NCBI GenBank assembly: GCA_028704635.1
Contig: JAQWFB010000002.1
Span: 128,693 to 192,692, forward strand
DNA length: 64,000 nucleotides
From: Candidatus Shapirobacteria bacterium
GTDB taxonomy: Bacteria; Patescibacteriota; Microgenomatia; UBA12405
Direction: 5' to 3'
The position numbers were made by a program, and so were the translations under genes. The first letter of the stretch is position 1. The number at the start of each line of letters is the position of its first letter. Positions 6,715-44,035 of this stretch are shown piece by piece. The notes below the pieces were generated by a model. It was not told where the DNA came from, did no database searches, and saw nothing but the letters and a program-made list of their open reading frames with translations.

Positions 6715-6922
6715 TTATACTAGATAAATAAAATTTAAATTCGCAGTTGCAATTTTTTATGGCCTTGAACGTGGGCGACCACATTCACCAGACATAAAAA
6801 ATTCTGTAACTAGAATTTCAATTTAAAAGATAAATTAATCAGAAAAATTTAAAAAAACATTTCTAGGGCCTCTCACGAAGTCACCACCAAAAATCCCCCT
6901 ATTACAGGGGGATTTTTATACT

Positions 6923-8300: not shown

Positions 8301-8314
8301 TTTAGTTTCTGAAT

Positions 8315-8431
8315 TCTGGCCACGACCTATCTTCAGGATCCCTTGCGGGAAGACTATTGTCAGCGCTAAAGCGTTTCACTTCTCTGTTCGAAATGGGAAG
8401 AGGTGGGTCCACCTCGCTCCAATGACCAGAG
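8315..8431 (-). rRNA. rrf: 5S ribosomal RNA
   Basis: The reverse complement reads CUCUGGUCAUUGGAGCGAGGUGGACCCACCUCUUCCCAUUUCGAACAGAGAAGUGAAACGC...GUCGUGGCCAGA. This matches the 5S consensus (helix I pairing UCUGGUCA with GGCCAGA; the CCGAAC-like loop C region). The ends are approximate to within about 3 nt. Confidence 0.8.
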
Positions 8432-8539
8432 TTCAAAAACTAAACTTGTATCGAATTGTAATTATATTTCTAATTTCTTGTTTTAATTTGCTAAATTATT
8501 AAAATTTTTACTTGAAAAACTTTATAAACTTGACAAACT

Positions 8540-11590
<3,051 letters not shown>

Positions 11591-14169: not shown

Positions 14170-15075
14170 TTATTGTCTTTTCAAAAACATCTCCACTACT
14201 GATTTTGCTACATTAATTCCAGTTGATTTTTCAAATCCTTGAAATTGACATTGTCGATTCACTTCCAAAACATAAGCATTCCCTTCACCATCTTTTATAA
14301 TATCTACTCCACAATAATCCAATCCACAAACTTTGGCCACTTTTTCTGCAATTTCTCTTTCTTTATCCGACAAATCCCAAGACTCCACATTTCCCCCTAA
14401 GCTAAAATTACTTCTAAATTCATCTCCTACTGCTGATCTTTTCATTGCTCCAATTGCCTTTCCATCTAAAACAATAATTCTCAAATCCCATCTAGTTGGT
14501 AAACATTTTTGCCATAAAAACATTCCCACATTTTTTTCATTAATTCTTCTCACAAATCTTCTTAATTCTTTAAAGTTTTCAAATTTTCTTACCGATTTAC
14601 CTTGAAACCCTCTTTCATGTTTGGCAATTATCGGCCATTCAAATTCTCTCCAAAACTTACTCTCTAGCACTTGTTCTTTAGTATAAAAAATTCTAGTTGG
14701 AATCACTGGCACCTCATTTTCTAAAAACACTCCATGTTGAGCAATTTTTCCCATTCTTGTCCAGTTCAAATATCCCTTTTTATTAGCACAAAATATTTCA
14801 CCACCTAAAATTCTCAAAGCTAAATTCCTCGCTTCAGTATATTTTCCCGTTCTCGTCCCAGCCACTCTAAACCACATTCCTAAAGTATTTTCCCCATTAA
14901 TTTCTTCTCCTTTAATAAAAACTTTCGCTTTTCCATTTTCCACATTAAAAGTTAAATCTTTGTAAAGAGATCTATTAACTTCTATCCCTAATTTCTTGGC
15001 TTCCGTTTCTAATCTATCAACTTCAAATTGGCTTTGTCTTAAAGACATTGTAAATGTGACTATTTTTTTATTCAT
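14170..15075 (-). CDS. RimK-type ATP-grasp ligase (alpha-L-glutamate-ligase-like)
   Basis: 301-aa protein with the ATP-grasp fold and signatures WPIIAKHERGFQGKSV, DLRIIVLDGKAIGAMKR and YVLEVN. Confidence 0.7.
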   Translation of the reverse strand: MNKKIVTFTMSLRQSQFEVDRLETEAKKLGIEVNRSLYKDLTFNVENGKAKVFIKGEEINGENTLGMWFRVAGTRTGKYTEARNLALRILGGEIFCANKKGYLNWTRMGKIAQHGVFLENEVPVIPTRIFYTKEQVLESKFWREFEWPIIAKHERGFQGKSVRKFENFKELRRFVRRINEKNVGMFLWQKCLPTRWDLRIIVLDGKAIGAMKRSAVGDEFRSNFSLGGNVESWDLSDKEREIAEKVAKVCGLDYCGVDIIKDGEGNAYVLEVNRQCQFQGFEKSTGINVAKSVVEMFLKRQ

Positions 15076-15096
15076 AATTATTTATTAATTTATAAG

Positions 15097-15135
15097 TCCC
15101 TCTTGTCAAAGAGGGATTTAGGGAGATTGAGCAAG
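15097..15135. repeat. Palindromic element (short form) that forms the C-terminal codons and stop of the RimK-like gene (15118)
   Basis: TCCCTCTTGTCAAAGAGGGA + TTTAGGGAGATTGAGC. Confidence 0.7.
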
Positions 15136-16095
15136 TGATACTAAAAATTTAACCATTTCCGCTGGCACATCAATCCCAGTTGCCTGCATAAATCCTTTAA
15201 ATTGCGGTCCTTTGTTCACTTCCCAAATCACCGGTGCCTTTAAATCATTATCCCTAAATGCCACATCCACCCCCGCCACCGCCAATCCACAAACCTTAGC
15301 CGCTTTGACTGCCAATTGTTTAATTTCTTCAGGTAATTCAGCCAACTCAACCTTTCCTCCGGCTGAATAATTATTTTTAAATTCATCTTTATTTTGACTA
15401 CTTCTTTTCATCACCCCCAACACTTTCTCCCCCAACACCAACACTCGATAATCCCCATCATTAGGAATAAACTCTTGCAACATATATCTTCTTCCTTCAT
15501 CAGTTTCACTTTTTCTCAAATCTCTTACCAATTTTTCCATTTGTTCTAAATTATCTGCCTTGTAAACTCTAGTTCCTCTATCCCCACCACTACCTTTAAT
15601 AATTACAGGCCAATCGTAAGGGCGGACCGATGTGTCCGCCTTCATTTGCTCATATAAATACCACAAACTTCCGTAAACTGTTTTTGGTACTTCTATTCCT
15701 GCCTTTTCCAAAGCCAACATTTGCCAAGCCTTACAAGCCATACTTGGTTTTCCATTTTCTACCAACGGATCAACGATGTACGGGCGACTCTTGTGGTCGC
15801 CCTTATTTATCTGATTAATAATCAAATCAACTTCTTCCCAATGTTTACCAGTGGTTCTAAAAAACAACACATCATAATCATCAATCTTTTTGTAATTATC
15901 AAATTGTTGAATTTTATTTTCTCCACTCAAATTTGGTCTAATTAAAATTTCTCTTTTTTCAGTATTAAAACAAACCCGATTATAAGACACCAAATCCAAA
16001 CTAACCCCCAATTTCCTAGCCGCCTTTTTAACCAACACTAAATGTTGGCTTATCTTTCCTCCAAAAAACACTGCTATTTTAGTTTGTTTATTCAT
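15118..16095 (-). CDS. RimK-type ATP-grasp ligase (second paralog)
   Basis: 325 aa, with ATP-grasp signatures WPVIIKGSGGDRGTRV, YRVLVLGEKVLGVMKR and VIWEVN. The C-terminal codons and the stop lie inside a palindromic element. Two GC-rich hairpins are embedded in frame. Confidence 0.7.
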   Translation of the reverse strand: MNKQTKIAVFFGGKISQHLVLVKKAARKLGVSLDLVSYNRVCFNTEKREILIRPNLSGENKIQQFDNYKKIDDYDVLFFRTTGKHWEEVDLIINQINKGDHKSRPYIVDPLVENGKPSMACKAWQMLALEKAGIEVPKTVYGSLWYLYEQMKADTSVRPYDWPVIIKGSGGDRGTRVYKADNLEQMEKLVRDLRKSETDEGRRYMLQEFIPNDGDYRVLVLGEKVLGVMKRSSQNKDEFKNNYSAGGKVELAELPEEIKQLAVKAAKVCGLAVAGVDVAFRDNDLKAPVIWEVNKGPQFKGFMQATGIDVPAEMVKFLVSLAQSP

Positions 16096-16126
16096 TTTTT
16101 AATTTTAATAATTAATTTTTAAGACT

Positions 16127-16184
16127 TCTCCCTTTGTTAAGGGGAGATGTCTCTCGCTACGCGAGAGACAGAGAGGTTTTTTAT
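16127..16184. repeat. Palindromic element, intergenic
   Basis: TCTCCCTTTGTTAAGGGGAGATG + TCTCTCGCTACGCGAGAGA + CAGAGAGGTTTTTTA. Confidence 0.8.
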
Positions 16185-17545
16185 TTCTTAGCACTAACTA
16201 AAAAATTACCTAAATCTTTTCTTCCTAATAAAAACTTTGTTCTTAATTTGCCTCTATCTGCCACATTCACTGCCGTTATTACTTTCTTCCCATTCAACCA
16301 AAAAGTAATTCCAATTACTGGTCGATCCACATGTTTTCCTAAACTTGATCGATAATTTCGATAATATAAAATTCTTTCTTTAGCTAATAACCCCAACCTT
16401 TGGGCCAAATCTCTATCTATCGAACTCCTAAACGCCCCAGTATCCACCTTAGCTCTCACATTTACCACCCGATGTTTTCCTTGTTTAACAATTGGACTTT
16501 TTTGTAAAACTGGTTTAAATCCTTTTGGAATTTTAACCTTAATTATTTCAATCGGCTCCACCATTTGTCTCTTTTCTTTTTCCTCTACCTTTTCAAAAAA
16601 ACTTTCTCCAAATAAATATTTAGCCAAAGTAATTGCATGATCCACACTTCTTACTGTAATTTCATCCACTTTCTCCATTCTTAATTTCAAGCCTGCCTTA
16701 TTACAAATCTGAATCGATAATCCCGGTCGAGCATTCACTTCCAACACCATCGGTCCTTTCTCTTTATCTAAAACCACATCCACCCCCATAAATCCTAAAG
16801 ACGGAATTGCTTTTTGACAATTAATTGCTGTCTCTAACACTTCTTTCCAAAATGGAATTTTAATTCCATTTACTTTTCTATTTTTCTTTTTTCCATAATC
16901 ATAAATTCGATAAATTGGTTCTCCTTTTCCTTCGACTCCAAAAGTAGTAATTCCTGTCGCCAAATCTACCCCTAAACCTATTGCTCCTTGCTGTAAATTT
17001 GCCTTACCTCCAGACTTTTCTGTTGGAATTCTAAACATCGCCATCACTGGTACATTATTATAAACAATCACTCTAATATCTGGTGTTCCCGCCTTAGTTA
17101 AAGACAAAAACAAGGGATGAATTTTAATTCTCTCTTCCACTATCACCTTATCTGGCATCGCATGTAAACTATATTTCCCTGCCACAATTTCTTGACAGTG
17201 TAAGTTTAAATCATTACTACTAATAATTTCTCCATTCATTTTTTGCCATTCACCTGCCCATTTCCCTCTTTTTCGAATAATCAAAATTCCTTCTCCGCCA
17301 TATCCCGATTCCGGCTTAATCACAAAATTTCCCTCCAAATCCTCCCATCTAAATTTTGCCAAATCCTGTTCATTTTTAAATCTAGCAATCAATTTTGGCA
17401 CCGACACTCCAGCCTTAGAAATTATTTTTTTAGTCTTAAATTTACTATCAGCAATTGCTCTTCCGCTAGCACTATTTTTCCTCAAATAAATTTTATTCCT
17501 CTCATTTTTAGTCAAAAATTGTCGATATTTTCTTAAATTAAACAT
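16181..17545 (-). CDS. ATP-grasp ligase fused to a C-terminal retropepsin-like domain (Pfam Zn_protease/DUF785-like)
   Basis: The N-terminal 300 aa form an ATP-grasp domain (FVIKPESGYGGEGILII, MVLEVNARPG). The C-terminal 120 aa carry the aspartyl-protease-like motif VDTGAFRSSI, typical of the RimK-associated protein family. Confidence 0.65.
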   Translation of the reverse strand: MFNLRKYRQFLTKNERNKIYLRKNSASGRAIADSKFKTKKIISKAGVSVPKLIARFKNEQDLAKFRWEDLEGNFVIKPESGYGGEGILIIRKRGKWAGEWQKMNGEIISSNDLNLHCQEIVAGKYSLHAMPDKVIVEERIKIHPLFLSLTKAGTPDIRVIVYNNVPVMAMFRIPTEKSGGKANLQQGAIGLGVDLATGITTFGVEGKGEPIYRIYDYGKKKNRKVNGIKIPFWKEVLETAINCQKAIPSLGFMGVDVVLDKEKGPMVLEVNARPGLSIQICNKAGLKLRMEKVDEITVRSVDHAITLAKYLFGESFFEKVEEKEKRQMVEPIEIIKVKIPKGFKPVLQKSPIVKQGKHRVVNVRAKVDTGAFRSSIDRDLAQRLGLLAKERILYYRNYRSSLGKHVDRPVIGITFWLNGKKVITAVNVADRGKLRTKFLLGRKDLGNFLVSAKK

Positions 17546-17566
17546 ATTAGTTTTACATTAATTAAG

Positions 17567-17616
17567 GCCTCCCTTCTTCAAGGGAGGCTCCCGGATTTAT
17601 CGGGTGGTGGGTTTAG
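17567..17616. repeat. Palindromic element, intergenic
   Basis: GCCTCCCTTCTTCAAGGGAGGCT + CCCGGATTTATCGGGTG + GTGGGTTTAG. Confidence 0.8.
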
Positions 17617-18469
17617 AACGTATCGCCCCTTTAAATCTCGTAATTTCCGTCAATCTAATTCCTGAATAATTACCAATCATCAAATTTGACACCAATACTA
17701 CTAGTATTATCATTTCTGGATATCTCAAAACCAAATTTTGAATTGAACCAAGACTCATAACCATCGCCCCCGCCAAAGCCAAAACTATGGTTCCCGCCAT
17801 TAATTTTTTGGCTTCTTTTTTACTTTTAACCAATTGCGTTCTTACAAATTCCTCTGCCAAAAGTATCATAAATAAAATTGGAAAAATTGAAATCTCGCTA
17901 ATATCAATTATATTTACAAAACTGGTCAATAACATCAATGCAAATACAGCCACAGAAATAAACATTAAATTAATTGCCCTCGCTGGCCAAAAATGAATCT
18001 TAAATTTTTTCAAAATCATATTACCTAAAAGAGAAATTGCCAAAATCAAAGCAAATAACAACAGTCCTCCAAAAAATCCTGTTGATAAAAAAGCCACTGC
18101 AATCATCGTTGGCATAAAAATGCCATAACCTGACAAACCTACCACATAATGTAAAAATGATACTAAAGTTGCTATCAATGGTAATAATAACAACAAAACT
18201 ATTGTGTTGGTTGATACACCTCTATCAATTGCTGTCTTTATCATCCATCTAAAACTATTAAACCCATTCCACTTACCCACTTCATAACTAATTTTATTAC
18301 TTTTTGCTTCAGTGATATTAATCGTCGGCACTGCCGTCGGTATTAACGTTGCTGTTGGAGTTGCTGTTGTCGTCGGGGTAATTATTGTTGTCTTTGCCAA
18401 AATTGGCTCAACATTTAAAAGAAAACTAAAACCAAAAACTATAAATAGTAGGGCAGCTATTTTTTTCAT
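17597..18469 (-). CDS. Seven-TM membrane protein, resembling the 7TM module linked to ATP-grasp peptide-ligase systems
   Basis: Has a signal peptide and a Thr/Pro-rich linker (TPTTTATPTATLIPTAVPT), followed by about seven hydrophobic helices. It is the first gene of the minus-strand ATP-grasp operon. Confidence 0.5.
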   Translation of the reverse strand: MKKIAALLFIVFGFSFLLNVEPILAKTTIITPTTTATPTATLIPTAVPTINITEAKSNKISYEVGKWNGFNSFRWMIKTAIDRGVSTNTIVLLLLLPLIATLVSFLHYVVGLSGYGIFMPTMIAVAFLSTGFFGGLLLFALILAISLLGNMILKKFKIHFWPARAINLMFISVAVFALMLLTSFVNIIDISEISIFPILFMILLAEEFVRTQLVKSKKEAKKLMAGTIVLALAGAMVMSLGSIQNLVLRYPEMIILVVLVSNLMIGNYSGIRLTEITRFKGAIRSKPTTR

Positions 18470-18570
18470 TAATTAATTTTACTTTATAATTTAATAAACT
18501 TTTTAACTTGATGATCTAATTTGTGGCGTATTATAACACCCTTTTTTCAAAAAAAACCATTAGTTTTATT

Positions 18571-18598
18571 GTAGGGTCCAGGCATGCCTGGACCCTAA
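18571..18598. repeat. Perfect palindrome GTAGGGTCCAGGCATGCCTGGACCCTAA (family copy 3), in the divergent region between the ATP-grasp operon and the pilin array
   Basis: Exact 26-bp inverted repeat with the same core. Confidence 0.85.
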
Positions 18599-18634
18599 TT
18601 ATTTAAAATATATTTTTCCCACAAAAATAATCAT

Positions 18635-18651
18635 TTTTATAGTATAATTCA
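18635..18651 (+). promoter_or_regulatory. Extended -10 promoter TTTTATAGTATAATT (TATAAT at 18644-18649), giving a near-leaderless transcript for pilin gene 1
   Basis: The identical 15-mer recurs at 20533-20547, upstream of pilin gene 6. Only 5-9 nt separate the -10 element from each ATG. Confidence 0.55.
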
Positions 18652-18658
18652 AACAAAT

Positions 18659-18991
18659 ATGAACTCCGTTTTAGCTTTTAATCTCAAAGATATCCAACTC
18701 GGACAAAACTCTAGTACCCTTGGTGGCAGTTATGCCACCACCAGTTCTCTTATTTCCATCATTCTCAAAACTTCTATTACTGTCGCCAGTATTATTTTTC
18801 TTGGTCTTTTGATTTTTGGTGGTATTACCTTTATAATGAACGCAGGTAGTGGTGATCCTAAAAAAGCTGGCCAAGGCCAAGCCGCCATCACCAATGCTTT
18901 AATTGGATTTGCTATTGTGCTTTTAGCCTATACCATCATCCAAATTATTGAAGTTATTACTGGATTAAACATTTTAAATCCAAATTTATAA
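18659..18991 (+). CDS. Small two-TM pilin-like protein (VirB2/TrbC-like topology), paralog 1 of 6
   Basis: 110 aa with TM1, then NAGSGDPKKAGQGQAAITNALIGFAIV, then TM2, and a conserved C-terminal tail ...GLNILNPNL. Confidence 0.6.
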   Translation: MNSVLAFNLKDIQLGQNSSTLGGSYATTSSLISIILKTSITVASIIFLGLLIFGGITFIMNAGSGDPKKAGQGQAAITNALIGFAIVLLAYTIIQIIEVITGLNILNPNL

Positions 18992-18997
18992 TTAATT

Positions 18998-19300
18998 ATG
19001 GCAACCTTTGGAAACATTTCCAACCCCACTTCTTTTGTTAGTGGCCCTCAAGGCTTCTTCGATTTTTTAAGCGCCATTTTTAAAGTTGCTGGCACCGTCG
19101 CTGGTATTTTTTTCATCGTCAAAATTATTCTCGCTGGATTCAAATATCTCAATGCTGGTGGTGACGAAAAGAAAACTGCCCAAGCTTGGGCCACTATCTG
19201 GCAAAGTATGATCGGTTTTGCCATCGTCGCTTCCGCTTTCGTCCTTGCTGGTGTTATTGGTAATTTATTTGGCATTAATATTCTCAATCCCACTCTATGA
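18998..19300 (+). CDS. Two-TM pilin-like protein, paralog 2
   Basis: 100 aa. Has TM1, the loop LNAGGDEKKTAQAW, TM2 and the tail FGINILNPTL. Confidence 0.6.
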   Translation: MATFGNISNPTSFVSGPQGFFDFLSAIFKVAGTVAGIFFIVKIILAGFKYLNAGGDEKKTAQAWATIWQSMIGFAIVASAFVLAGVIGNLFGINILNPTL

Positions 19301-19647
19301 ACCATCTAACTAATCAATTATTAGCGTATACTCTCACCGGTCCTGGAATTGCTGTTACTTCCGGTGCCGATTCCATTTCTACTCTCGAAAAAATTATTAG
19401 TTCTATTATTGGTATCTTAACCATAGTTGGCGTCATCTATTTCACCATCCAAATAATTTTAGCCGGTTTTTCCTTAATCGCTTCCCAGGGTGATCCAAAA
19501 GAATTTCAATCTAGTAAAAAAAGATTAACCACTAATGTTATTGGATTAGTCATTATTATCATTGCCTACGGGCTTGGTGCCCTAATTGCCAGCTTGCTTG
19601 GCATGAATAGTATTTTCGATTTATCAACCGTTTTTCAACCAATATAA
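19297..19647 (+). CDS. Two-TM pilin-like protein, paralog 3
   Basis: 116 aa with TM1, ASQGDPKEFQSSKKRLTTNVIGLVIII and TM2. Overlaps the previous gene by 4 nt. Confidence 0.6.
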   Translation: MNHLTNQLLAYTLTGPGIAVTSGADSISTLEKIISSIIGILTIVGVIYFTIQIILAGFSLIASQGDPKEFQSSKKRLTTNVIGLVIIIIAYGLGALIASLLGMNSIFDLSTVFQPI

Positions 19648-19648
19648 T

Positions 19649-19975
19649 ATGGCTATCACCAATCCTGTCTTAAAAAATAGTTCTAATATCAGCAGTAACC
19701 CCATTGCTTACACTAATAGTGTCATTCAAACCATTATTTCCATCTTTTTTATTTTTGGTCTTATTTATTTCATTTACCACATCGTCCTTTCTGGTTACAA
19801 AATGATTTCTTCCCAAGGAGATCCAAAAAAATACGAAGAAGCTCAACACAGTCTTACTTATGCCGTCATTGGTATCGCTATTGTCTTTTCCATTTTTGCC
19901 TTACTTAAAGTTATTGGTAGTATTTTTGGCATCATCGGCCTAGAAACTTTAACCATTAGTTGGCCATCCCTTTAA
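19649..19975 (+). CDS. Two-TM pilin-like protein, paralog 4
   Basis: 108 aa with TM1, SSQGDPKKYEEAQHSLTYAVIGIAIV and TM2. Confidence 0.6.
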   Translation: MAITNPVLKNSSNISSNPIAYTNSVIQTIISIFFIFGLIYFIYHIVLSGYKMISSQGDPKKYEEAQHSLTYAVIGIAIVFSIFALLKVIGSIFGIIGLETLTISWPSL

Positions 19976-20025
19976 TATTTCAAATTTACTGGTAAAATTA
20001 ATTAATAGTTATTAAATCAAAAAAA

Positions 20026-20406
20026 ATGATCAAAGAAATCAAAAACAAAATTCAATTTGCCGCCATTGCTGCTCCAGTCTACGCTGCTCAAAGTTTAGAA
20101 CTTACTGGTAAAAGTGATAGTTTCACCAATCTCGAAAATTTAACTGTTAATGGTATGGTTTCTGGTGCTATTAGTTTGGTTTTAATTGTGGTTTCATTAG
20201 TTTTCTTCTTTATTCTTGTCATTGGTGGTCTTAAATGGATCACTTCTGGTGGCGACGAAAAGAAAGTTGCTGCCGCTCGTGCTCAAATCACCAATGCCTT
20301 AATTGGCTTAGTTATCGTTTTCGCTGCTTGGGCCATTATGAAACTAATTGGTTCACTCTTCGGTATTGATATTCTTGGAACTTTAACTTTTCCTACTTTC
20401 CAATAA
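20026..20406 (+). CDS. Two-TM pilin-like protein, paralog 5
   Basis: 126 aa with TM1, TSGGDEKKVAAARAQITNALIGLVIVF and TM2. Confidence 0.6.
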   Translation: MIKEIKNKIQFAAIAAPVYAAQSLELTGKSDSFTNLENLTVNGMVSGAISLVLIVVSLVFFFILVIGGLKWITSGGDEKKVAAARAQITNALIGLVIVFAAWAIMKLIGSLFGIDILGTLTFPTFQ

Positions 20407-20425
20407 AATCAAATTAATTTTTGTT

Positions 20426-20457
20426 GTAGGGGCAGACCATTGTGTCTGCCCCTTTTC
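20426..20457 (+). terminator. Intrinsic terminator after pilin gene 5
   Basis: The sequence GTAGGGGCAGACCATTGTGTCTGCCCC forms a GC-rich stem and is followed by TTTT. Confidence 0.6.
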
Positions 20458-20532
20458 GTTTAAATAGGTCTAAATTTGAACCTTAAGGCCAAATTTTGCC
20501 TATTTACACGACCCCGATTTATCGGGGTATAT

Positions 20533-20547
20533 TTTATAGTATAATTA
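20533..20547 (+). promoter_or_regulatory. Second copy of the TTTTATAGTATAATT promoter, upstream of pilin gene 6
   Basis: Identical 15-mer, 5 nt upstream of the ATG at 20552. It is preceded by a CGACCCCGATTTATCGGGGTA hairpin. Confidence 0.55.
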
Positions 20548-20551
20548 ACCT

Positions 20552-20902
20552 ATGAATTTAATCTCAAAAATATTTTCTCCCACCCCTATCTGCGCTGCTG
20601 ATTGGAGTAGTACTTGTGTTAAAGATACTGATGTTGCCACCATTCAAGGTTTCAATTGTCTTTTTGCCAATATTGCCCAAGTTATCATCTATTTTGCTGG
20701 TATTGTCTTTTTTATTATGTTTATTCGTGGCGGCTTCAGTTATTTAACTTCTGGTGGTGACCCAAAAAAAACTGCTAAAGCCAATTCCACTCTTACTCTG
20801 GCTGTTATTGGTTTAGTCGGAGTCATTATTTCCTTTTTAATCATCACCTTCATCGGCGACTTTACCGGTGTCAATGTTACTGAATTCAATATCCCTAATT
20901 AA
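20552..20902 (+). CDS. Two-TM pilin-like protein, paralog 6
   Basis: 116 aa with TM1, LTSGGDPKKTAKANSTLTLAVIGLVGV and TM2. Confidence 0.6.
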   Translation: MNLISKIFSPTPICAADWSSTCVKDTDVATIQGFNCLFANIAQVIIYFAGIVFFIMFIRGGFSYLTSGGDPKKTAKANSTLTLAVIGLVGVIISFLIITFIGDFTGVNVTEFNIPN

Positions 20903-22383
20903 TGAAACGACTTTTAATCGTTTTATTATTTTTCTTATTTTTATTCCCCTCCTTGTCAAGGGAGGGGTCAGGGGTGGGTTTTGTTTATGCCCAATCAACT
21001 ACTATCACTGAAAATCAAACTACTACAACCACTACCCCTCCAGAAGAAAGTTTATTGACTAAATTTTGGAGTTGGATTTCCAAAGTTTTTATTAAAACTG
21101 ATTACACCATCGCCCAACGACCATCCGATGAAATTAATTCTGACATGACCGACTATGATACTGCATCCGACAACCGTAAACACTCTTCCTCTGGTACTCG
21201 TCTTACTGACTCTTCCAGTCAAACTTGTTACAAAGGCAATGTTATCAAAAAAGTTATTTTAGGTGAATACCAAGATTCCGACATTTCTCACATTTGTCCC
21301 GATCCATCAGACTCAAACAAATGTATTGTTTCGTCCGATTCAACTTGTAAACTAATAAAAATTAGTGATCTCGCTCATTATTTTGTTCAAACTCAAAAAC
21401 AATTTTATTGCGCAGGAAATAAATTAACTAATACTGAAAGTAATGTTATCGATAAAGTTAATGAAAAATATTCCAATTCCATTTCCTCTAATGACTTAGA
21501 TTGCTACCAAACTATTTACAACGATTTTTATTTAGTTCCCAAAGAAAGTGTTGAAAATGAAGAAAATTCCAAAAACATAGTTCAAACTCCTATTTCTGCC
21601 GGTGATCAAAAATCAGGTTCCATTAGTGATACTAAAGATCAGCTTAATAAAAATTTTGTTCCCGCTAATCAAAGCTGGGATGGTTTAAGTAGTCTTCGTC
21701 CCCAAAGTTGGGGTAAAGGTTCATCGGGAATTAGTTGGGGTACTAGTGGTGAATTTAACGGTGGTGGTACCAGTTCTGGTACCTGTAATGCCATTGATAG
21801 CCACTGTCGAGGCATGAGCCTTTACGGTGCTCTCGGTCTTTCTCAATCAGGTAAAAATTACGAAGAAATTCTTAATTTTTTTTATGGCAGTATCTCTCTA
21901 AAAACTATTAATACTTCCAATACTAATATTTCTGTTAAAACCGACAGTAACGACGATTGCTCTAGTTATCAACCATTAAATCTTGAAACTTACCTTAGTG
22001 GTCTTGGAGAAATGTCTGATTATTGGGGTGATCCTAGCACCAACGGCTATGAGAGCATGAAAGCTTTAGTAGTTGCTGCCCGTACCTATGCTTATGTTGC
22101 CACCCAAAATTTCACCCAACCAATCTGTAGTAATTCCAATTGTCAAAATTTTCATTGCAGTGTTATCAAAACTAAACCTAATTTAGATCGAGCCATCAAA
22201 GAAACTCAAGGTCAAATTATTGTCGATAGCACTAATCAAACCCCATTTTTAACCGAATACGCTCGTTCATTTTGTGGTCCATCTAAAACTGTTGTTTTTT
22301 CCAACCACACCAATACTTCAGTCAATGGTTATGAATATGAACTCAAAGCTCTCAGCGGCGACTCCCCATTCTGCCTCAATTAA
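20902..22383 (+). CDS. Secreted Cys-rich protein with a C-terminal SpoIID/LytB-like domain (putative cell-wall lytic factor)
   Basis: Has a signal peptide and a Thr-rich linker (TTTITENQTTTTTTPPEE). Near the C-terminus the motifs ESMKALVVAARTYAYVATQN and CQNF match the SpoIID signature. The signal-peptide region contains an in-frame palindromic element (20945-20985). Confidence 0.5.
   Translation: MKRLLIVLLFFLFLFPSLSREGSGVGFVYAQSTTITENQTTTTTTPPEESLLTKFWSWISKVFIKTDYTIAQRPSDEINSDMTDYDTASDNRKHSSSGTRLTDSSSQTCYKGNVIKKVILGEYQDSDISHICPDPSDSNKCIVSSDSTCKLIKISDLAHYFVQTQKQFYCAGNKLTNTESNVIDKVNEKYSNSISSNDLDCYQTIYNDFYLVPKESVENEENSKNIVQTPISAGDQKSGSISDTKDQLNKNFVPANQSWDGLSSLRPQSWGKGSSGISWGTSGEFNGGGTSSGTCNAIDSHCRGMSLYGALGLSQSGKNYEEILNFFYGSISLKTINTSNTNISVKTDSNDDCSSYQPLNLETYLSGLGEMSDYWGDPSTNGYESMKALVVAARTYAYVATQNFTQPICSNSNCQNFHCSVIKTKPNLDRAIKETQGQIIVDSTNQTPFLTEYARSFCGPSKTVVFSNHTNTSVNGYEYELKALSGDSPFCLN
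20945..20985. repeat. Palindromic element inside the SpoIID-like gene (encodes PSLSREGSGVGFV in the signal-peptide region)
   Basis: CCCCTCCTTGTCAAGGGAGGGG + TCAGGGG + TGGGTTTTGTTT. Confidence 0.75.
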
Positions 22384-22428
22384 ACAAATTTCAACAATCT
22401 CTACCCTGCTAGTTGGTAAATATTTTTT

Positions 22429-23997
22429 ATGCTAAAATTATCCATAATGTCCATCTCAAATATCTTACAGAAACTCAACTCCCGCGACACTCGATTAATT
22501 CCCCAACTTCCCAAATTAAATAAAAAAATTAAATTTGCCTCAATTTTAATTGCCTTTGTTTTTTTAGGTTTTCTTAGCCATCAAATATTAGCTGTCACCA
22601 ATATTAATATCAATAATTCTTCAGCCATTGAAAAATTCAAAAATAAGCAAACTGCCATTGATAAAGGAAACAATCAAGAATCTTGGATGAACGAATCTAT
22701 AATGAGTAACGCTATGTCTCTTAATCAAGCCATTGCTGGCACTATTCCTGATAGTGTTCTCAACAGTACCACCACTTCTTGGGTTCCCGGTGGCATGATT
22801 GGTGTTGCCAACCAATCAATTGCTTATCTCTATAATCCCCCCGCTTCTGGAGTTCAATATATTGCTCAATCAGTCGATAATTTTCTCGGCAAACCAGCCT
22901 ATGCTGCTACCGGTTATGAAGGTTTAAAAGGTATCCAAAATATTTGGAAATCATTTAGAAATGCAGTTTATGTTCTCTTTTCAATAATTTTCATTGGCAT
23001 TGGTATTGCCATCATGCTTCGTGTCAAAATCAGTCAACAAGCCGTTATTTCCATTCAATCCGCCATTCCCTCATTAATCACCAGTCTTATTTTAGTTACC
23101 TTCTCCTACGCCATTGCCGGTCTTTTGATTGATTTAAGCTATGTTTTTCAAGGCTTAGTTTTAGCTATACTTTTTAATTCAAAAGGTGGTCTCAGTTCAA
23201 CTCTTTTTTCTGGTGGCTTAGTTAACCCATCTTTTTCTACCCTAATGAATACCGGCTTCTGGGAATTTTTCTTTTTGTCTACAAAAGCAGTTCCTGTAAC
23301 AGCCATAACCTTACTAGCTGGTATCCCTAGTGGAATAATTACCGGTCTTATTGCTGGTTTTAGTTTTGGATTAGCCACACCTATTGCTGTTGCTGTAGGA
23401 GCAGGTACTTTTATTCTCATATTTTTAATGATTATCATAATGATTTTGATTTATGTTATAAAATTTTTCTTCGGTATGATCAAATGTTTTATTAGTCTAA
23501 TTCTTAAAATAATTCTCGCTCCAATCGAAATCGGTATGGGTGCTGTCCCTAATAGTAAAATGAACTTTTCCAGTTGGATTTGGCAAATCATTGCCAATTT
23601 AGCTGTTTTTCCAATTTCTCTTATTTTTTTGGTTTTAGTCAATATGATTATCGATAGTGTTAATACTAATAATCTTTGGGCTCCACCAATGCTTGGTGGT
23701 AGTTGGTTATTATGTCCCGCAATTGGTATCGGCGCTTTAATGATGCTTTCCAAACTCCCATCCATGATCCCTGAATTTATTTTCCAAATCAAACCATCTC
23801 CATTTGGTAAAGCTATTGGCGAAGGCTTTAAGCCTTATAGTTCTGCTACTAAATTCGGCGGCCGTATGGCCGCTGAAGCCGGCGCTGGTCAAATCAGAGA
23901 ATATGAAAAAAATGCCCCTGATAAGGGATGGGTCAAAGCTGGTGGTTACTTAACTAGGGCCGCAGAAATGACAGGTATAATTAAAGAAAGAAAATAA
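22429..23997 (+). CDS. Polytopic membrane protein (VirB6/TrbL-like topology, putative)
   Basis: 522 aa. An N-terminal signal anchor and a roughly 150-aa extracytoplasmic segment are followed by at least six hydrophobic helices. It lies in the pilin/T4SS-like cluster. Confidence 0.4.
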   Translation: MLKLSIMSISNILQKLNSRDTRLIPQLPKLNKKIKFASILIAFVFLGFLSHQILAVTNININNSSAIEKFKNKQTAIDKGNNQESWMNESIMSNAMSLNQAIAGTIPDSVLNSTTTSWVPGGMIGVANQSIAYLYNPPASGVQYIAQSVDNFLGKPAYAATGYEGLKGIQNIWKSFRNAVYVLFSIIFIGIGIAIMLRVKISQQAVISIQSAIPSLITSLILVTFSYAIAGLLIDLSYVFQGLVLAILFNSKGGLSSTLFSGGLVNPSFSTLMNTGFWEFFFLSTKAVPVTAITLLAGIPSGIITGLIAGFSFGLATPIAVAVGAGTFILIFLMIIIMILIYVIKFFFGMIKCFISLILKIILAPIEIGMGAVPNSKMNFSSWIWQIIANLAVFPISLIFLVLVNMIIDSVNTNNLWAPPMLGGSWLLCPAIGIGALMMLSKLPSMIPEFIFQIKPSPFGKAIGEGFKPYSSATKFGGRMAAEAGAGQIREYEKNAPDKGWVKAGGYLTRAAEMTGIIKERK

Positions 23998-24062
23998 TAA
24001 TTAATCCCTTGTTTTTAATATATCAATATTCTGCTTCAGTTTAATTAATTCGGATCTGTAAA

Positions 24063-26321
24063 TTAATTAAAGGCTCTTTTGTTCAATTGTCTATACAACT
24101 TCTCTGTTTTTCTTATATCTCTTTCCCTTTGAGCATCATTTACTATTGTTAATCTAAAACCTCTTGGATCTTCATTTCCTTTAACATTAACACCCATATA
24201 ACGCATTACACTATTTATATCCACATCTGCATTACTTATATTTAAGTCTTGCACTAACAATTTGTATAAAAATAAATTATAACCACTTTTTGATACCTCT
24301 TTTGGTGTTTTTACATAAATATAATCCGAGGACAAACGTGTTGTATCCGCTCCAAATGAGCCTAGTATCATATTTGCCCAATAATCTGGACTAGTTGTAT
24401 ATTTATAAGTGGGTTTCCCATTTATTCTTATCCCTCTCACCATACCAACCTTATCTTTAATATCGTGGACCCAACCTTCCACACTTTTAACCTCCTTCTT
24501 TCCCATCATACAATTGTATGACAAAGCTGCTGTCTCTATTTGATCCCTAAATAAATTCAAAAAATCAACTTGGTTTGTTCCAAAACTAAAATCACCATTT
24601 TCATTCCTATTAATTAATTTTCCTTCATCATCAAACCTTGCATAATTCATCAATAAAGTTGATACTGTTACATCTTCTTCTTTGGTAAACTTTTCACCAT
24701 TTGGTTTACACAAATCTCTTGTTCCATAAGTAAAATCAAAAAATCCATAGCACATTTTATTATCAAAAATTTTCATTTCCCCATCTGTAATCTTTTCTCT
24801 CAATGTCTTTTTTCCATCAATTGGCTTTCCCAATTCTTTTTCCACCCTCATCACTGTTAATGCATAATCCGCCAACGATCCACCAAAATATTCCGCTTCA
24901 AAAATATCCTTTTCTTCTTTAAAAACCTTCCATTTGCTTTTGGCTTTATATTCTGGGTTTAAAGTCCTCATTCCATCATTAATAATCCCTCCATATGTTG
25001 GCATCACTCTCGTTCTATCAGCTAAACTCGAATCACCAAACATATAAAACAAATTCCACGCCGTATATGCATTCATTTTATCCATATAATTAGCCTCTTT
25101 TCTTCCATTTTGTTTTGCCAAAAAATCAGCCATTTCCTCTTTATAATCTCTTATTCCTTCTAATTTATTTTCCACACTTGCCTTGATTCCTTGATGTCCC
25201 TTTTTATTTATCCCCTCCTTATATCTCAAACTCATTCTCCCATTTTTATCCTCATAAAGTTCACATAAATCATTCAACATTTTACTCGATACCAATTTAA
25301 AATCTTCATTAAATAATTTCGTGAATTTTTCGTTATCAAATGCAAACCACATCCTATTACCCTGAATTTTATCCAAATCTTTACCCGCATAACTCATACT
25401 AGCCGCCCCATCGTTAACCATCACCATATATTCAATCCTAGATTGTATTTCTTCAGTAGATTCTTTAACGCTCCCATCCTTGTTTAATATTGGTTTTATC
25501 TTTTTAAACCACTCCGGAGGCGTATATGATTGCCATCTCATACTAGAATCCATAAATTTCATCGCCATTGCCGCATTTTCTGGAGATATTTCCCATCTCG
25601 CCCCACCTCTAGTTTCCTGCGTTTCTGGATCGATAACTATTGGTTCATAATCTACTTCATCGTCTATATCTACCTTTCTTCTTACACTTGGATCCACCTC
25701 TCTTACTAATCCACTATCTAAACATCCCACCACTGCTCCTATTTTTAATCCGTCTTTCGAATCTGGATCAATTTCATCAAATTTATCACATAAAATTTCA
25801 ATTACTCTTTTAGTTTCTATTCCTCGTTTTTCAGCAAAAGCTTTTGGTGCTAAAATTGCCCTTCTGTTAATTTTTTCTAAATCAATTAAATTGGCTACAA
25901 TCTCTTTTCCCACTTTATCACCATCTCCTGATACCAATAAATTTTCCGCCACATACTTCTCTATTCCTACCAAATTAGATGGTAAGTTTTCGCCCAATTT
26001 ACCTTGTAATAATAAATCATTTGCCTTTCCATTTTCTGTTAAACACATTGCTGAACCTAAAAGATTCAAAGCCTCTTCTGCATTTTTTCTTTGGATGTCA
26101 GTTTTACCTGTTAAATCTTTAGTAGTATTTATCATTTCCTCTACACTTTGGTAATTAGCAGCAAAACTTCCCCCTAAAATTTCTCTTGCTTTTTCAGCAG
26201 ACTCTTGAGAAGAATCACCTAAAACCTTATTTCTCTCAATTGTTCTCGACAAATTCACCGCCTTCAACACTTTTTCTGTAGATATATTTATTTCTGGTCC
26301 TCTTTCACTCATATGCCCCAA
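24063..26321 (-). CDS. Large hypothetical soluble protein (752 aa)
   Basis: Long, clean ORF with coding-like composition. It has no TM helices or signal peptide, and no motif I recognise. Confidence 0.55.
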   Translation of the reverse strand: MGHMSERGPEINISTEKVLKAVNLSRTIERNKVLGDSSQESAEKAREILGGSFAANYQSVEEMINTTKDLTGKTDIQRKNAEEALNLLGSAMCLTENGKANDLLLQGKLGENLPSNLVGIEKYVAENLLVSGDGDKVGKEIVANLIDLEKINRRAILAPKAFAEKRGIETKRVIEILCDKFDEIDPDSKDGLKIGAVVGCLDSGLVREVDPSVRRKVDIDDEVDYEPIVIDPETQETRGGARWEISPENAAMAMKFMDSSMRWQSYTPPEWFKKIKPILNKDGSVKESTEEIQSRIEYMVMVNDGAASMSYAGKDLDKIQGNRMWFAFDNEKFTKLFNEDFKLVSSKMLNDLCELYEDKNGRMSLRYKEGINKKGHQGIKASVENKLEGIRDYKEEMADFLAKQNGRKEANYMDKMNAYTAWNLFYMFGDSSLADRTRVMPTYGGIINDGMRTLNPEYKAKSKWKVFKEEKDIFEAEYFGGSLADYALTVMRVEKELGKPIDGKKTLREKITDGEMKIFDNKMCYGFFDFTYGTRDLCKPNGEKFTKEEDVTVSTLLMNYARFDDEGKLINRNENGDFSFGTNQVDFLNLFRDQIETAALSYNCMMGKKEVKSVEGWVHDIKDKVGMVRGIRINGKPTYKYTTSPDYWANMILGSFGADTTRLSSDYIYVKTPKEVSKSGYNLFLYKLLVQDLNISNADVDINSVMRYMGVNVKGNEDPRGFRLTIVNDAQRERDIRKTEKLYRQLNKRAFN

Positions 26322-26336
26322 TTATACCAAATCCGA

Positions 26337-26406
26337 TCCCTCTTTGACTATCACTCCCTTTTCAAGGGAGGGAAATCCCGCATCTGCGGGATGGGTGGGT
26401 TTTATA
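26337..26406. repeat. Palindromic element(s) in the 5' region of the 26344 ORF (encode PFSREGNPASAGWVGF)
   Basis: CCCTCTTTGACTATCACTCCCTTTTCAAGGGAGGGA + AATCCCGCATCTGCGGGAT + GGGTGGGTTTTATAG. Confidence 0.8.
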
Positions 26407-26418
26407 GTACAATTATTT

Positions 26419-28110
26419 ATGCCTTCGCTTCTACCCTCTTCCAATATTTCTTCCATCGAAAATCACGTTCGTTCCTATCGTTCGGCGCTTCAATCCAATC
26501 TCGAAATCACCATCAATTCTCTTTCGAATTCTCACCTTAAAATGCATTCTCTTCTCCACCCCCTCGGTCACACCAAAGAAGTCGATTTTTCCGCACTCAC
26601 TTATTCACTTGACCGTCTCCCTCGAATCAGTCACGAAGTCGAAAAAATTATCATCGGTCAAAGTCCCGAGGTTTTTGAAGAATCAGGTTACAAAAATATC
26701 ACCAAATGGAAAGAGGTTAAATCTAAAAATCGTCGCCGAATTGCCTATCTTAATTCTCAAAAAAAAACATTAGCTTTTTTTATTGCTTCCGTCTCTGATA
26801 TTGATGACCTTGTTAATATTCTTATTACCCTTCAAATCGAATGGAATAAATTAAATCAACTTCTTCGCAAAAATTATTCACTTTTCTCCCTTCTTCAAAA
26901 AGATCTTGAATCTCAAGAATTTTTCCAAAAATTAAAAGTTGACCCCAAAAAATGGCAACTATTCACTTCCTCTCTTGGCTCGAATTGGCGTTCTAAAATT
27001 AAAAAAATCTATAAATCTCCTATCAATCTTAGAGTTCAACTTCTTGCCGCCTCTTGGCTCAACTACACTAAATCAACTCAAAAGTGGTGGCGAAATATCT
27101 CCACCAACGTTTCTCCTGTTTTTCACCACATGTCTCATCAAGAGATTTATTTTGTTTCCAGTAATACTCACAGTTTAATGAATATTTTTACTGGTTTTCC
27201 TTTAGCTCACCAGTTTGAAATTATTTCTGACCTAAAAGCTAATCACCCTTCCCTTTATCAAATTTGGGAACAAATCAAATCCAAAAATTCACTTCTATCC
27301 CCCACCGATTTTATTTATTTTACTTCTAAACATTTCCTCTCCCGCCCAGAAGTCAAGAAAGATTATCAAGCCTTTCAAAAAAAACTCGGTATTTTTAACA
27401 TTCCCAACCCTAATTATCTCGACATCACTTCCCAAATTTTTCCCATAAAAAACTTAATTAAATCAAAATATCTCGACCCACGAATCAAAATCAAAAAACC
27501 TCTCTCTCTCGAAAAATCAAACGCTCTAATTATAAATATTGATTATCCTCTTGGTTTTGCCGCTTATCATATCCTCAGTGAAATCATGGAAAATGTTAAA
27601 AATATCAAAGGAGTTTATATTCTCGGTAAAGCCGCCGCCCTCAATAGTGAAGTCGGCGATCTCATCACCCCTCGTTTAGTTTTTGACGAACACACCCAAA
27701 ATTCCTACCTCTTCAAAAATTGTTTTAATAATTTTTTTCCTTTTGTTAATAATCAAGGTTCAATTTTAACCAATCAAAAGGCTGTTTCTGTTTTTGGCAC
27801 CTTTCTTGAAAATAAAGCTCTCTTAAATTTTTATTTCAAAAATAACATCACTATTATTGAAATGGAATCTGGTCCTTATTTAAGTGCTGTCACTGAGAGT
27901 TGTTATGACCAACAAGCCCCAAAAAAATCTATTGTCGATCTTAACAACTGTCCTTTCGATCTCGGTATCATCAATTATGCCTCTGACACCCCTTATTCCA
28001 GTCTTCAAAATCTCGGCGACAGTCAATTAGGCATCACTGGTATCGAACCAGTCACTTTAGGTAGCTTAGCCATCTTACAACGAATAATAAATCTTGAAGA
28101 AGAAAAGTGA
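26419..28110 (+). CDS. Hypothetical protein with a possible C-terminal nucleoside-phosphorylase-like (PNP/UDP) domain. The ORF opens at 26344, inside a palindromic element, and the likely true start is M at 26419.
   Basis: The C-terminal region GFAAYHILSEIMENVKNIKGVYILGKAAALNSEVGDLITP...IIEMESGPY resembles PNP_UDP_1 motifs. The first 25 codons of the long ORF are element-encoded (PFSREGNPASAGWVGF). Confidence 0.4.
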   Translation: MPSLLPSSNISSIENHVRSYRSALQSNLEITINSLSNSHLKMHSLLHPLGHTKEVDFSALTYSLDRLPRISHEVEKIIIGQSPEVFEESGYKNITKWKEVKSKNRRRIAYLNSQKKTLAFFIASVSDIDDLVNILITLQIEWNKLNQLLRKNYSLFSLLQKDLESQEFFQKLKVDPKKWQLFTSSLGSNWRSKIKKIYKSPINLRVQLLAASWLNYTKSTQKWWRNISTNVSPVFHHMSHQEIYFVSSNTHSLMNIFTGFPLAHQFEIISDLKANHPSLYQIWEQIKSKNSLLSPTDFIYFTSKHFLSRPEVKKDYQAFQKKLGIFNIPNPNYLDITSQIFPIKNLIKSKYLDPRIKIKKPLSLEKSNALIINIDYPLGFAAYHILSEIMENVKNIKGVYILGKAAALNSEVGDLITPRLVFDEHTQNSYLFKNCFNNFFPFVNNQGSILTNQKAVSVFGTFLENKALLNFYFKNNITIIEMESGPYLSAVTESCYDQQAPKKSIVDLNNCPFDLGIINYASDTPYSSLQNLGDSQLGITGIEPVTLGSLAILQRIINLEEEK

Positions 28111-31935: not shown

Positions 31936-31987
31936 CCCATGATTATACCATCAAATTTGGTTCAAAAAATTAAAAAATAAAGACTTC

Positions 31988-40680: not shown

Positions 40681-40738
40681 TTTTAAATTCCTGCCTATTT
40701 AACCGTTATTTTTTATGTTGTAAATTTTACAATCCATT

Positions 40739-43603: not shown

Positions 43604-44035
43604 TTAGTCTTTAACTCTAAATTCAATTTCATGGTTAGGTGGATTTATATCTTTACTTATTATCCATTTATTAATCAATTCTTTTATTTCTTCCTGATTT
43701 TCACTTTTTGAAACATAAACCACCAAAGTCATATTTTTAATATAATGACTAATTTTAAATCGATCAGTTTCGTAAGGTAGGCTCTCCCATAATGGGTGAG
43801 TTGTTAAATAATCATCAGATTCCTTTTTATTCTGTTTCACTTCTTCTTCATTTGGATTAATTAACTCTTCTCCCAGCTCTGAAGCAGTTTTGGTCGGAAT
43901 CGGAGATATTGTAATTTGATTGATTGTTTCATTTATCTTATTATTCTTATTTTGTTCCCAAAACAATAACCAAAAGATTAAAACTAATAAAACAACACCA
44001 ATTATTATCAATATTATTTTTTTTAAATTTGACAT
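43604..44035 (-). CDS. Small signal-anchored hypothetical protein
   Basis: 143 aa with an N-terminal TM helix. It is the last gene of the minus-strand T4SS-like operon. Confidence 0.45.
   Translation of the reverse strand: MSNLKKIILIIIGVVLLVLIFWLLFWEQNKNNKINETINQITISPIPTKTASELGEELINPNEEEVKQNKKESDDYLTTHPLWESLPYETDRFKISHYIKNMTLVVYVSKSENQEEIKELINKWIISKDINPPNHEIEFRVKD

Follow-up and report, generated by a model that had tools for sequence, protein, structure and literature searches.

Why does a bacterium of the Patescibacteria keep six different versions of one small membrane protein side by side, and what would it use them for? We addressed this question for a tandem array of six genes, p1 to p6, in a stretch of 64,000 nucleotides (nt) from a Candidatus Shapirobacteria bacterium of the Microgenomatia (GenBank assembly GCA_028704635.1, contig JAQWFB010000002.1, positions 128,693 to 192,692 of the forward strand), referred to below as the window, whose numbering is used throughout. 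An earlier note, made from the letters of the DNA, had proposed a VirB2/TrbC-like pilin family with a duplicated promoter, kept for subunit variation or for phase or antigenic diversity. For its epibiotic life, the sole genetically tractable Patescibacterium requires a type IV secretion system (T4SS) with its series of pilins, yet no pilus has been seen; the present locus narrows the hypotheses about such arrays without adding a new kind of system. We conclude that the six proteins are probably distinct, non-interchangeable members of the T4SS pilin family PF18895, forming the subunits of a single T4SS-associated heteromeric filament or conduit.

Six distinct paralogs form the array

The six tandem open reading frames (ORFs) of 100-126 amino acids (aa) that the earlier note had placed on the + strand at 18659-20902 were all confirmed:

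18659-18991, + strand: p1, pilin paralog, 110 aa; PF18895 28.8 bits; lacks a signal-peptide-like N-terminus; C-terminus GLNILNPNL
18998-19300, + strand: p2, pilin paralog, 100 aa; PF18895 36.9 bits; C-terminus GINILNPTL
19297-19647, + strand: p3, pilin paralog, 116 aa; PF18895 25.2 bits; ATGA overlap of its start with the p2 stop; orthogroup with the greatest divergence
19649-19975, + strand: p4, pilin paralog, 108 aa; PF18895 34.2 bits; start 1 nt past the p3 stop
20026-20406, + strand: p5, pilin paralog, 126 aa; PF18895 38.1 bits; best-conserved orthogroup; signal-peptide-like N-terminus
20552-20902, + strand: p6, pilin paralog, 116 aa; PF18895 27.5 bits; conserved C21 and C35 in the outer N-terminal segment; first gene of operon 2

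The first four genes are spaced by 6, -4, and 1 nt, followed by a spacer of 50 nt before p5 and one of 145 nt before p6. Pairwise identities in a MAFFT alignment range from 26 to 38%, and a hidden Markov model (HMM) of the family found no further member among the ORFs of the window. Kyte-Doolittle profiles gave two strong hydrophobic segments in each protein, as the earlier note had described. Its loop motif was correct in that a G-D-x-K turn is conserved in all six, although the actual consensus is [GQ]-G-D-[PE]-K-[KE], and its common NILNP(N/T)L tail occurs in p1 and p2 but not in p3-p6, whose tails differ. The columns invariant across the six proteins are, in p5 numbering, F60, G68, G76, D77, K79, I93, G94, I108, and G113.

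The N-termini set p5 and p6 apart. The p5 leader starts K-rich (MIKEIKNK...), continues with a short hydrophobic stretch, and ends AAPVYA|AQ; the leader-like N-terminus of p6 ends ..ICA|AD, and in p6 orthologues the leader ends PVYA|Q. No leader-like N-terminus is present in p1-p4. The exact p5 protein sequence is also encoded on contig JAQVCE010000010 of GCA_028689945.1. AlphaFold2 modeled p5 (42 aligned sequences) as a helical hairpin with helices at residues 41-73 and 78-112 and a pLDDT of 82-94 over residues 51-110, preceded by an N-terminal helix (3-19) of low confidence.

Runs of seven or eight A residues occur at 20774-20781 (p6), 19825-19831 (p4), and 20019-20025 (ahead of the p5 ATG). 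They stem from the loop Lys-Lys codons and the p5 leader, and are more likely a by-product of AAA codons in an AT-rich genome than slippage sites.

The paralogs belong to a T4SS pilin family

Family membership was judged by curated cutoffs (gathering scores of 26.6 bits for PF18895 and 27.9 bits for PF04956, equivalog score of 40 bits for NF045849) and on a panel of 146 proteins, orthologues and paralogs from orthologous arrays, with panel matches counted at an E value of <0.001. Five of the six paralogs passed the gathering score of PF18895 (T4SS_pilin), p3 falling marginally under it, and 145 of the 146 panel proteins matched this one Pfam family, so the family signal lies well beyond chance. 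PF04956 (TrbC/VirB2) was matched by p3 alone, below the cutoff (26.2 bits, E = 9.4e-6, nearly the whole model aligned), and by just 4 of the 146 panel proteins. The proposed VirB2/TrbC-like identity thus held as far as PF18895, which is curated as T4SS pilins; strict TrbC/VirB2 membership did not, with PF04956 scores under the cutoff and an hhalign probability of 0.3% against VirB2. The label "VirB2-like" is justified through topology, context, and curated annotation, and not through demonstrable homology to classical VirB2.

All six proteins also matched NF045849, the Mbov_0395 family pilin-like conjugal transfer protein, with 25-35 bits over model positions ~5-78 of 80, as did 142 of the panel proteins, all sub-threshold (best E = 1.8e-9). 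Because every score is lower than 40 bits, we regard the pilins as relatives and not members of this family. Judged from these profile matches, the closest curated relative outside Pfam is this Mycoplasma pilin-like family of an integrative and conjugative element (ICE), which comes from a monoderm (MPF-FATA) conjugation system. A profile of the six paralogs matched 62,523 representative clusters at E <= 0.001 among 1.84 billion, indicating that the pilin family is very large. A tblastn search of 72,556 plasmids with p3 gave no match at E <= 10.

The set is fixed across species and under purifying selection

A single scan of species-representative genomes using p5 recruited 59 loci. Leaving aside the source contigs, 30 of these, each from another species, have precisely the set p1-p6 in identical order. 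The surroundings are shared as well: genes for ATP-grasp and 7TM_transglut proteins lie upstream, and genes for a hydrolase, a VirB6-like protein, a 752-aa protein, and a DUF6909 protein lie downstream. For all 186 of 186 pilins, the best cross-genome match was at the same array position, and identity is 50-66% within an orthogroup versus ~33% between paralogs.

Compared with the two closest relatives, the ratio of nonsynonymous to synonymous substitution (dN/dS) was 0.03-0.11 for p1-p6 and 0.04-0.10 for housekeeping neighbors; with dS between 0.2 and 1.3 in these comparisons, the values are approximate. The same comparison gave higher values than those of the pilins for the adjacent SpoIID-like (0.21-0.27) and VirB6-like (0.20-0.24) genes. 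The stretch at 18300-24100 contains neither long repeats, direct or inverted, nor cassettes or invertible segments, and an invertible or cassette mechanism was rejected on this ground. The positional orthology, the purifying selection, and the lack of repeats together indicate an old, fixed set, and contradict for this lineage the proposal of the earlier note that the copies provide subunit variation or phase or antigenic diversity.

Among the six, p5 shows the highest orthogroup conservation, and the p5 type is the sole type amplified in other lineages (2-5 copies). When the arrays of Saccharibacteria were classified with group HMMs, the margins were too small to settle one-to-one orthology.

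Many representative records that carry a locus of the Shapirobacteria type are titled "uncultured Gammaproteobacteria bacterium" (L003, L005-L008, L010, and L011 among our loci, and others) and one "Nevskiaceae"; these titles look like taxonomic mislabels.

Two predicted transcription units and a leaderless promoter type

The following putative expression signals were located in and around the array:

18572-18597, + strand: GC-rich terminator-like hairpin upstream of the array (11-bp stem, 7 GC pairs)
18635-18649, + strand: promoter-like box of operon 1, TTTTATAGTATAATT; TATAAT at 18643-18648, 10 nt ahead of the p1 ATG, predicting a near-leaderless mRNA
19986-19998, + strand: possible internal p5 promoter, TTACTGGTAAAAT, extended -10-like, 27 nt ahead of the p5 ATG
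20428-20463, + strand: intrinsic-terminator-like hairpin (20428-20453) and T-run after p5, the presumed end of operon 1
20511-20528, + strand: second small GC hairpin just ahead of the p6 promoter; its ACCCCGAT..ATCGGGGT element is shared with related loci L010, L013, and L030
20532-20546, + strand: promoter-like box of operon 2, TTTTATAGTATAATT; TATAAT ends 6 nt ahead of the p6 ATG, predicting a leaderless mRNA

The hairpin at 18572-18597, being terminator-like, would insulate the array from the divergent 7TM_transglut gene. The earlier note was right that p1 and p6 share an identical 15-mer, TTTTATAGTATAATT, and near-leaderless starts; exactly two copies exist, at 18635 and 20532. In related loci, a -10 box stands 5-10 nt ahead of the p1 ATG in 29 of 30 cases and 5-7 nt ahead of the p6 ATG in 27 of 30 as called, the remaining three having an ATG 7 nt past the box, and the sequence flanking the p1 and p6 boxes differs throughout these species. 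Ahead of p5, an extended -10-like element, TTACTGnTAAAAT (TGnTA[AC]AAT-like), lies 24-43 nt upstream of the ATG in ~18 of the 30 loci, in which the p4-p5 spacer is kept at 39-92 nt. A GC hairpin with a T-run is visible between p5 and p6 in most of them. Taken together, these conserved signals appear to define p1-p5 as one transcription unit and p6 with the SpoIID-like and VirB6-like genes as a second.

The shared box turned out to be common in this genome. TA[TC]AAT with the start codon of a long ORF within 3-13 nt occurs at 21 sites in the window, and T[AG]GTATAAT followed by ATG 5-10 nt on precedes 12 or more genes of the window, at least 10 of them unrelated, including dnaA, ftsH, and the genes for the DUF6909 and 752-aa proteins (examples at 6713-6727 on the - strand, 26400-26414 on the + strand, 31941-31949 on the - strand, and 40725-40733 on the + strand); the VTT gene has another such box-plus-start site. 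Of the 15 positions of the TTTTATAGTATAATT 15-mer, 14 agree with the promoter of the DUF6909 gene. Since the same type of box stands before unrelated genes, and at p1 and p6 in ~30 species with differing flanks, the identical promoters, which are real and conserved, reflect the consensus leaderless promoter of the genome and not the duplication that had been proposed. No evident Shine-Dalgarno sequences precede the pilin genes, and leaderless transcription seems, by these sequence patterns, to prevail in this genome.

Just downstream of the two 15-mers, a match of 16 of 17 nt (TTTAATCTCAAA[G/A]ATAT) connects 18677-18693 with 20557-20573 (p ~2e-4 versus random segment pairs). We did not accept this match as evidence that the promoter had been duplicated together with the 5′ end of the gene, because p1 and p6 carry it in different reading frames and the closest relatives lack it.

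Neighboring genes and a second T4SS locus

The window is ordinary chromosome, with 23S and 5S rRNA, tRNAs, rho, ftsH, yidC, dnaA, and dnaN. Two genes directly downstream of the array and a second locus 25 kb away make up the T4SS context:

20902-22383, + strand: SpoIID-domain protein, 493 aa, with an N-terminal signal or transmembrane segment; PF08486 36.3 bits (cutoff 23); start overlaps the p6 stop (TAATG)
22429-23997, + strand: 522-aa polytopic membrane protein, weakly VirB6/TrwI-like; kept directly downstream of the array and found in 25 of 30 related loci
43604-44035 and 44035-45969, - strand: two uncharacterized membrane-anchored proteins, 143 and 644 aa, co-oriented with VirB4 and next to dnaN/dnaA; no family match
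45982-48570, - strand: VirB4-type T4SS ATPase; PF19044 107 bits, PF12846; NF045971 382 bits (cutoff 325)
48570-49274, - strand: TrsD-like protein (N-terminal part of VirB4); NF041427 E = 2.7e-8, far below the cutoff; also aligned with N-terminal regions of two VirB4 models
49278-50189, - strand: PrgI/VirB3-like protein; PF12666 (PrgI) 26.0 bits, borderline (cutoff 27)

The -1 overlap between p6 and the SpoIID-like gene is kept in at least 15 related loci, and in other species a protein of 700-1000 aa fills the same position. We consider the SpoIID-domain protein a candidate wall-remodeling partner, a VirB1 analogue standing in for the missing VirB1 hydrolase. The 522-aa protein had no match in Pfam, NCBIfam, or PDB-sequence searches; its AlphaFold2 model (pLDDT 71.7) was searched against the PDB with Foldseek, and the top six hits were all TrwI/VirB6 of the R388 T4SS, with a probability of 0.85-0.98 in five of the six, E values of 0.03-0.4, and TM-scores of 0.30-0.40 relative to the target. 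These matches are weak and point specifically at VirB6, suggesting that the protein is a VirB6-type candidate.

The earlier note had held that absence of a secretion ATPase would argue against pilins; this objection does not apply, because a VirB4 passing NF045971 is encoded in the same window. This VirB4 is of the CD1110/TrsE type, which by NF045971 places it in MPF-FATA, and the gene order PrgI-TrsD-VirB4 is the one expected for a monoderm T4SS of that type. It also matches the ICE ATPase model NF045975 (Mbov_0397 family) with 267 bits. Its residues ~585-862 form a C-terminal extension of ~280 residues that is rich in Pro, Lys, Glu, and Val, of low complexity, and outside all VirB4 models.

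By position alone, the 644- and 143-aa proteins are possible further T4SS parts. The N-terminal part of the 644-aa protein is acidic, its membrane region is rich in Gly and Ala, and its C-terminal domain, which contains Cys and His, might be a peptidoglycan amidase.

Relation to known systems

Arrays of this kind were published between 2023 and 2025, so the present locus is a correct rediscovery and not a discovery. Quinonero-Coronel 2025 (PMC12102498) used PF18895 and PF04956 to search 3,035 genomes of Patescibacteria and reported 441 pilin arrays of 2-11 genes, abundant in Microgenomatia, with a mean identity within arrays of 25% and a maximum of 54%; the near-dnaA position was remarked on there. 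The locus agrees with the array definition of that survey, having six genes in tandem, identities of 26-38%, and VirB4 in the same window. In Ca. Southlakia epibionticum, the pilins as a series are essential (Wang 2023, PMC10633639), and a 2025 FEMS review (PMC12857230) describes six sequence-divergent, essential VirB2-like pilins in Southlakia, with no pilus yet observed. VirB6 has been reported to be scarce in Microgenomatia.

The published arrays of Ca. Southlakia epibionticum ML1 (SEML1_0006-0019) and Nanosynbacter lyticus TM7x share with ours the PF18895 family, divergent tandem paralogs (six in Southlakia, as here), a chromosomal location near dnaA, an MPF-FATA VirB4 with TrsD and PrgI/VirB3 (here TrsD-like and PrgI/VirB3-like genes), and the lack of a nearby relaxase or coupling protein. 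In contrast, the T4SS is split here, with the pilin, VirB6-like, and SpoIID-like genes 25 kb from VirB4, and the lineage is Microgenomatia. The pilin-like protein of Mollicutes ICEs (NF045849, the Mbov_0395/MMCAP2_0565 family) gave a near full-length profile match with all six paralogs, and the partner VirB4 matches an ICE ATPase model as well; however, the ICE is mobile and, going by the model name, has one such gene, whereas the six copies here are fixed in the chromosome, with no relaxase in the window. These monoderm (MPF-FATA) nearest relatives are consistent with the published VirB4 phylogeny, and the kinship with NF045849 qualifies the published statement (PMC12102498) that MPF-FATA systems are without such pilin proteins.

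Diderm TrbC/VirB2 proteins (T-pilin, RP4 TrbC) are likewise small. A short loop, polar or basic, connects their two hydrophobic helices, they have a leader (here in p5 and p6), and they are associated with VirB4/VirB6-type genes, but the present host is monoderm and has no outer-membrane core complex. The VirB2 arrays of Bartonella and Anaplasma share the tandem multiplication; theirs, in the antigenic variation model, vary for immune evasion, whereas ours is old, positionally fixed, and under purifying selection. A functional analogy can be drawn to type II pseudopilins and type IV minor pilins, which also form a fixed, ordered, orthologous set of major and minor parts that are not interchangeable. 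There is no kinship of sequence or fold with these proteins, which have a single N-terminal helix and a prepilin-peptidase site, absent here.

A probable heteromeric assembly and its alternatives

Being fixed, ordered, and under purifying selection, the paralogs resemble non-redundant parts and not a variation device, and the conserved two-operon layout marks out p5 and p6. In the assembly that we consider probable, each pilin would sit in the membrane as a helical hairpin, its N- and C-terminus both exposed on the outside, and its G-D-[PE]-K-K turn would face the cytoplasm and, once assembled, the lumen. A monoderm MPF-FATA-like machine driven by VirB4 would pull the subunits from the membrane into one heteromeric filament or wall-spanning conduit. 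This machine would be encoded in two loci, one (18.6-24 kb) carrying the pilins, the SpoIID-like hydrolase, and the VirB6-like platform, the other (43.6-50.2 kb, beside dnaA) carrying VirB3, TrsD, and VirB4. The main building block would be p5, with p1-p4 as minor subunits, and p6 could initiate assembly or act as an adaptor or as a base or tip subunit. We propose p5 as the best candidate for the major subunit because it is the most conserved, is amplified elsewhere, and has a signal-peptide-like N-terminus and possibly its own promoter; p6 is the best candidate for an initiator, base, or tip subunit because it appears to be transcribed separately, with its translation coupled to that of the hydrolase and the VirB6-like protein. 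In Saccharibacteria, PF18895 genes lie inside the T4SS cluster and are essential, and by analogy the cargo may be something required for epibiotic life on the host cell. Family membership, the T4SS gene context, positional orthology, purifying selection, and the conserved signals of two operons are demonstrated here; polymerization, the roles of the single paralogs, and the transported cargo are what we infer.

Several observations weigh against this assembly or its parts. Comparison by hhalign with an alignment of 32 database VirB2 proteins detected no homology; this alignment is narrow (Rhizobiales), so that a broader TrbC profile could still connect the families (a VirB2 bait sequence served solely to retrieve the database proteins; P0241, an entry 99% identical to it, is Agrobacterium VirB2). 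PDB sequence searches with profiles of the six paralogs and of 146 sequences matched no solved pilin (VirB2, TraA, or TrwL), and Foldseek of the p5 model against the PDB returned nothing at E < 0.001, fold searches being non-discriminating for a helical hairpin. The pilin locus sits 25 kb from VirB4, the scanned ORFs of at least 100 aa in the window include neither a relaxase nor a coupling protein, and the VirB6-like call depends on E values of just 0.03-0.4. The conservation of p5 is partly a matter of ascertainment, as the loci were recruited with p5 peptides, and its dN against the two nearest relatives is not the lowest of the six. No filament of T4SS pilins has been seen in any Patescibacterium (PMC12857230). 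Many strong matches to the family profile combine 2-15 pilin modules in one polypeptide, and we call such proteins polypilins: P0361 and P0363 have six modules each, P0369 has eleven, P0375 has fifteen matched stretches, and P0378 is another example. P0361 (552 aa) is encoded by a continuous ORF of 1,659 nt within a pilin array on another Patescibacteria contig (L062, 1777-3435), and the 2025 survey (PMC12102498) does not mention fused pilins. Linked modules must be cleaved or assemble laterally as joined hairpins, and are hard to reconcile with simple extraction of monomers.

The proposal of the earlier note, which PMC12102498 brings up as well in view of the VirB2 arrays of Bartonella and Anaplasma, treats the six as alternative, equivalent major pilins that serve antigenic or phase variation or adaptation to host strains. 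The low identity within the array (26-38%, akin to the 25% mean of Patescibacteria arrays), the two separate promoters, the A7-A8 runs in the Lys-Lys codons, and the differing copy number of the p5 type between lineages would all suit such a device. However, every one of the six has its own positional orthologue, one to one, in 30 species (186/186). Diversifying selection is not evident (dN/dS 0.03-0.11), and the SpoIID-like and VirB6-like neighbors evolve faster than the pilins. The region at 18300-24100 lacks long repeats, cassettes, and invertible segments, and p1-p4 are translationally coupled (6, -4, and 1 nt), hence not alternatively expressed; we consider variation improbable. Still less credible is a reading in which small membrane proteins unrelated to pilins (holins, bacteriocin-immunity or generic two-helix proteins) owe their pilin annotation, as an artefact, to a hydrophobic composition. 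In its favor, the Pfam scores are modest (25-38 bits), hydrophobic hairpins draw spurious matches, and the array lies 25 kb away from VirB4, but neither a holin family, which the earlier note had named among the refuting outcomes, nor a phage family was matched (no match in PHROGs, best Pfam holin E = 0.39). Moreover, 145 of 146 panel proteins match PF18895 and 142 the ICE pilin-like model, the non-hydrophobic G-D-x-K columns are conserved, the synteny with the VirB6-like protein is kept, and the same family occurs inside the essential T4SS cluster of Saccharibacteria, which makes an artefact very improbable.

A more serious contender is that the six are T4SS components yet not pilus subunits, with the hairpins packed into a static ring or short channel through the membrane and thin wall and no filament, much as other small hairpin proteins build rings in membranes. 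Gram-positive-type T4SSs are mostly without a pilus (PMC10633639), and no pilus has been observed in Patescibacteria (PMC12857230). The set of six is fixed and looks stoichiometric, and the polypilins of 2-15 modules fit a fixed lateral assembly better than one-by-one extraction. In solved conjugative pili (VirB2, TraA), however, both pilin ends are on the outer surface, so linked modules could still join a helical tube, and the fusions could be cleaved. The VirB6-like neighbor and VirB4 correspond to the drivers of pilus growth in diderm systems, and the pilins matched no ring-forming family in Pfam or NCBIfam; we judge a static ring rather unlikely, though more probable than the other two alternatives.

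Extending the heteromeric assembly, an obligate hetero-oligomeric set of one p5-type major and five specialized subunits may have been inherited with the monoderm MPF-FATA machinery and not borrowed from diderms; Gram-positive-type T4SSs would then ancestrally have had a VirB2-like subunit, and the polypilins would point to a lateral, covalently linkable tube or ring in place of classical free monomers. We offer this extension tentatively, as less likely than not. The kinship with the Mycoplasma ICE pilin-like protein bears on whether the pilins arrived with a monoderm T4SS, and the candidates directly downstream of the array bear on the "missing" VirB6 and VirB1 (SpoIID-type) of Microgenomatia. 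The added value of this work is comparative and lies in the positional orthology, the operon architecture, the VirB6 and VirB1 candidates, the link to Mollicutes ICEs, and the polypilin fusions.

Other features of the window

Divergently upstream of the array, at 14170-18469 on the - strand, lie two RimK-like ATP-grasp genes, an ATPgrasp_ST gene whose product has an aspartyl/zinc-protease-like C-terminus, and the gene for the 7TM_transglut protein; the ATPgrasp_ST and 7TM_transglut genes are syntenic with the array in ~30 species. On the other side, a soluble 752-aa protein with no family match (24063-26321, - strand) and a DUF6909 protein (26344-28110, + strand) are encoded divergently, with leaderless promoters, and their genes adjoin the VirB6-like gene in many related loci. 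At 8314-11590 on the - strand, 23S and 5S rRNA genes stand without an adjacent 16S gene, with a tRNA gene and protein-coding genes next upstream, and the rRNA genes appear to be unlinked.

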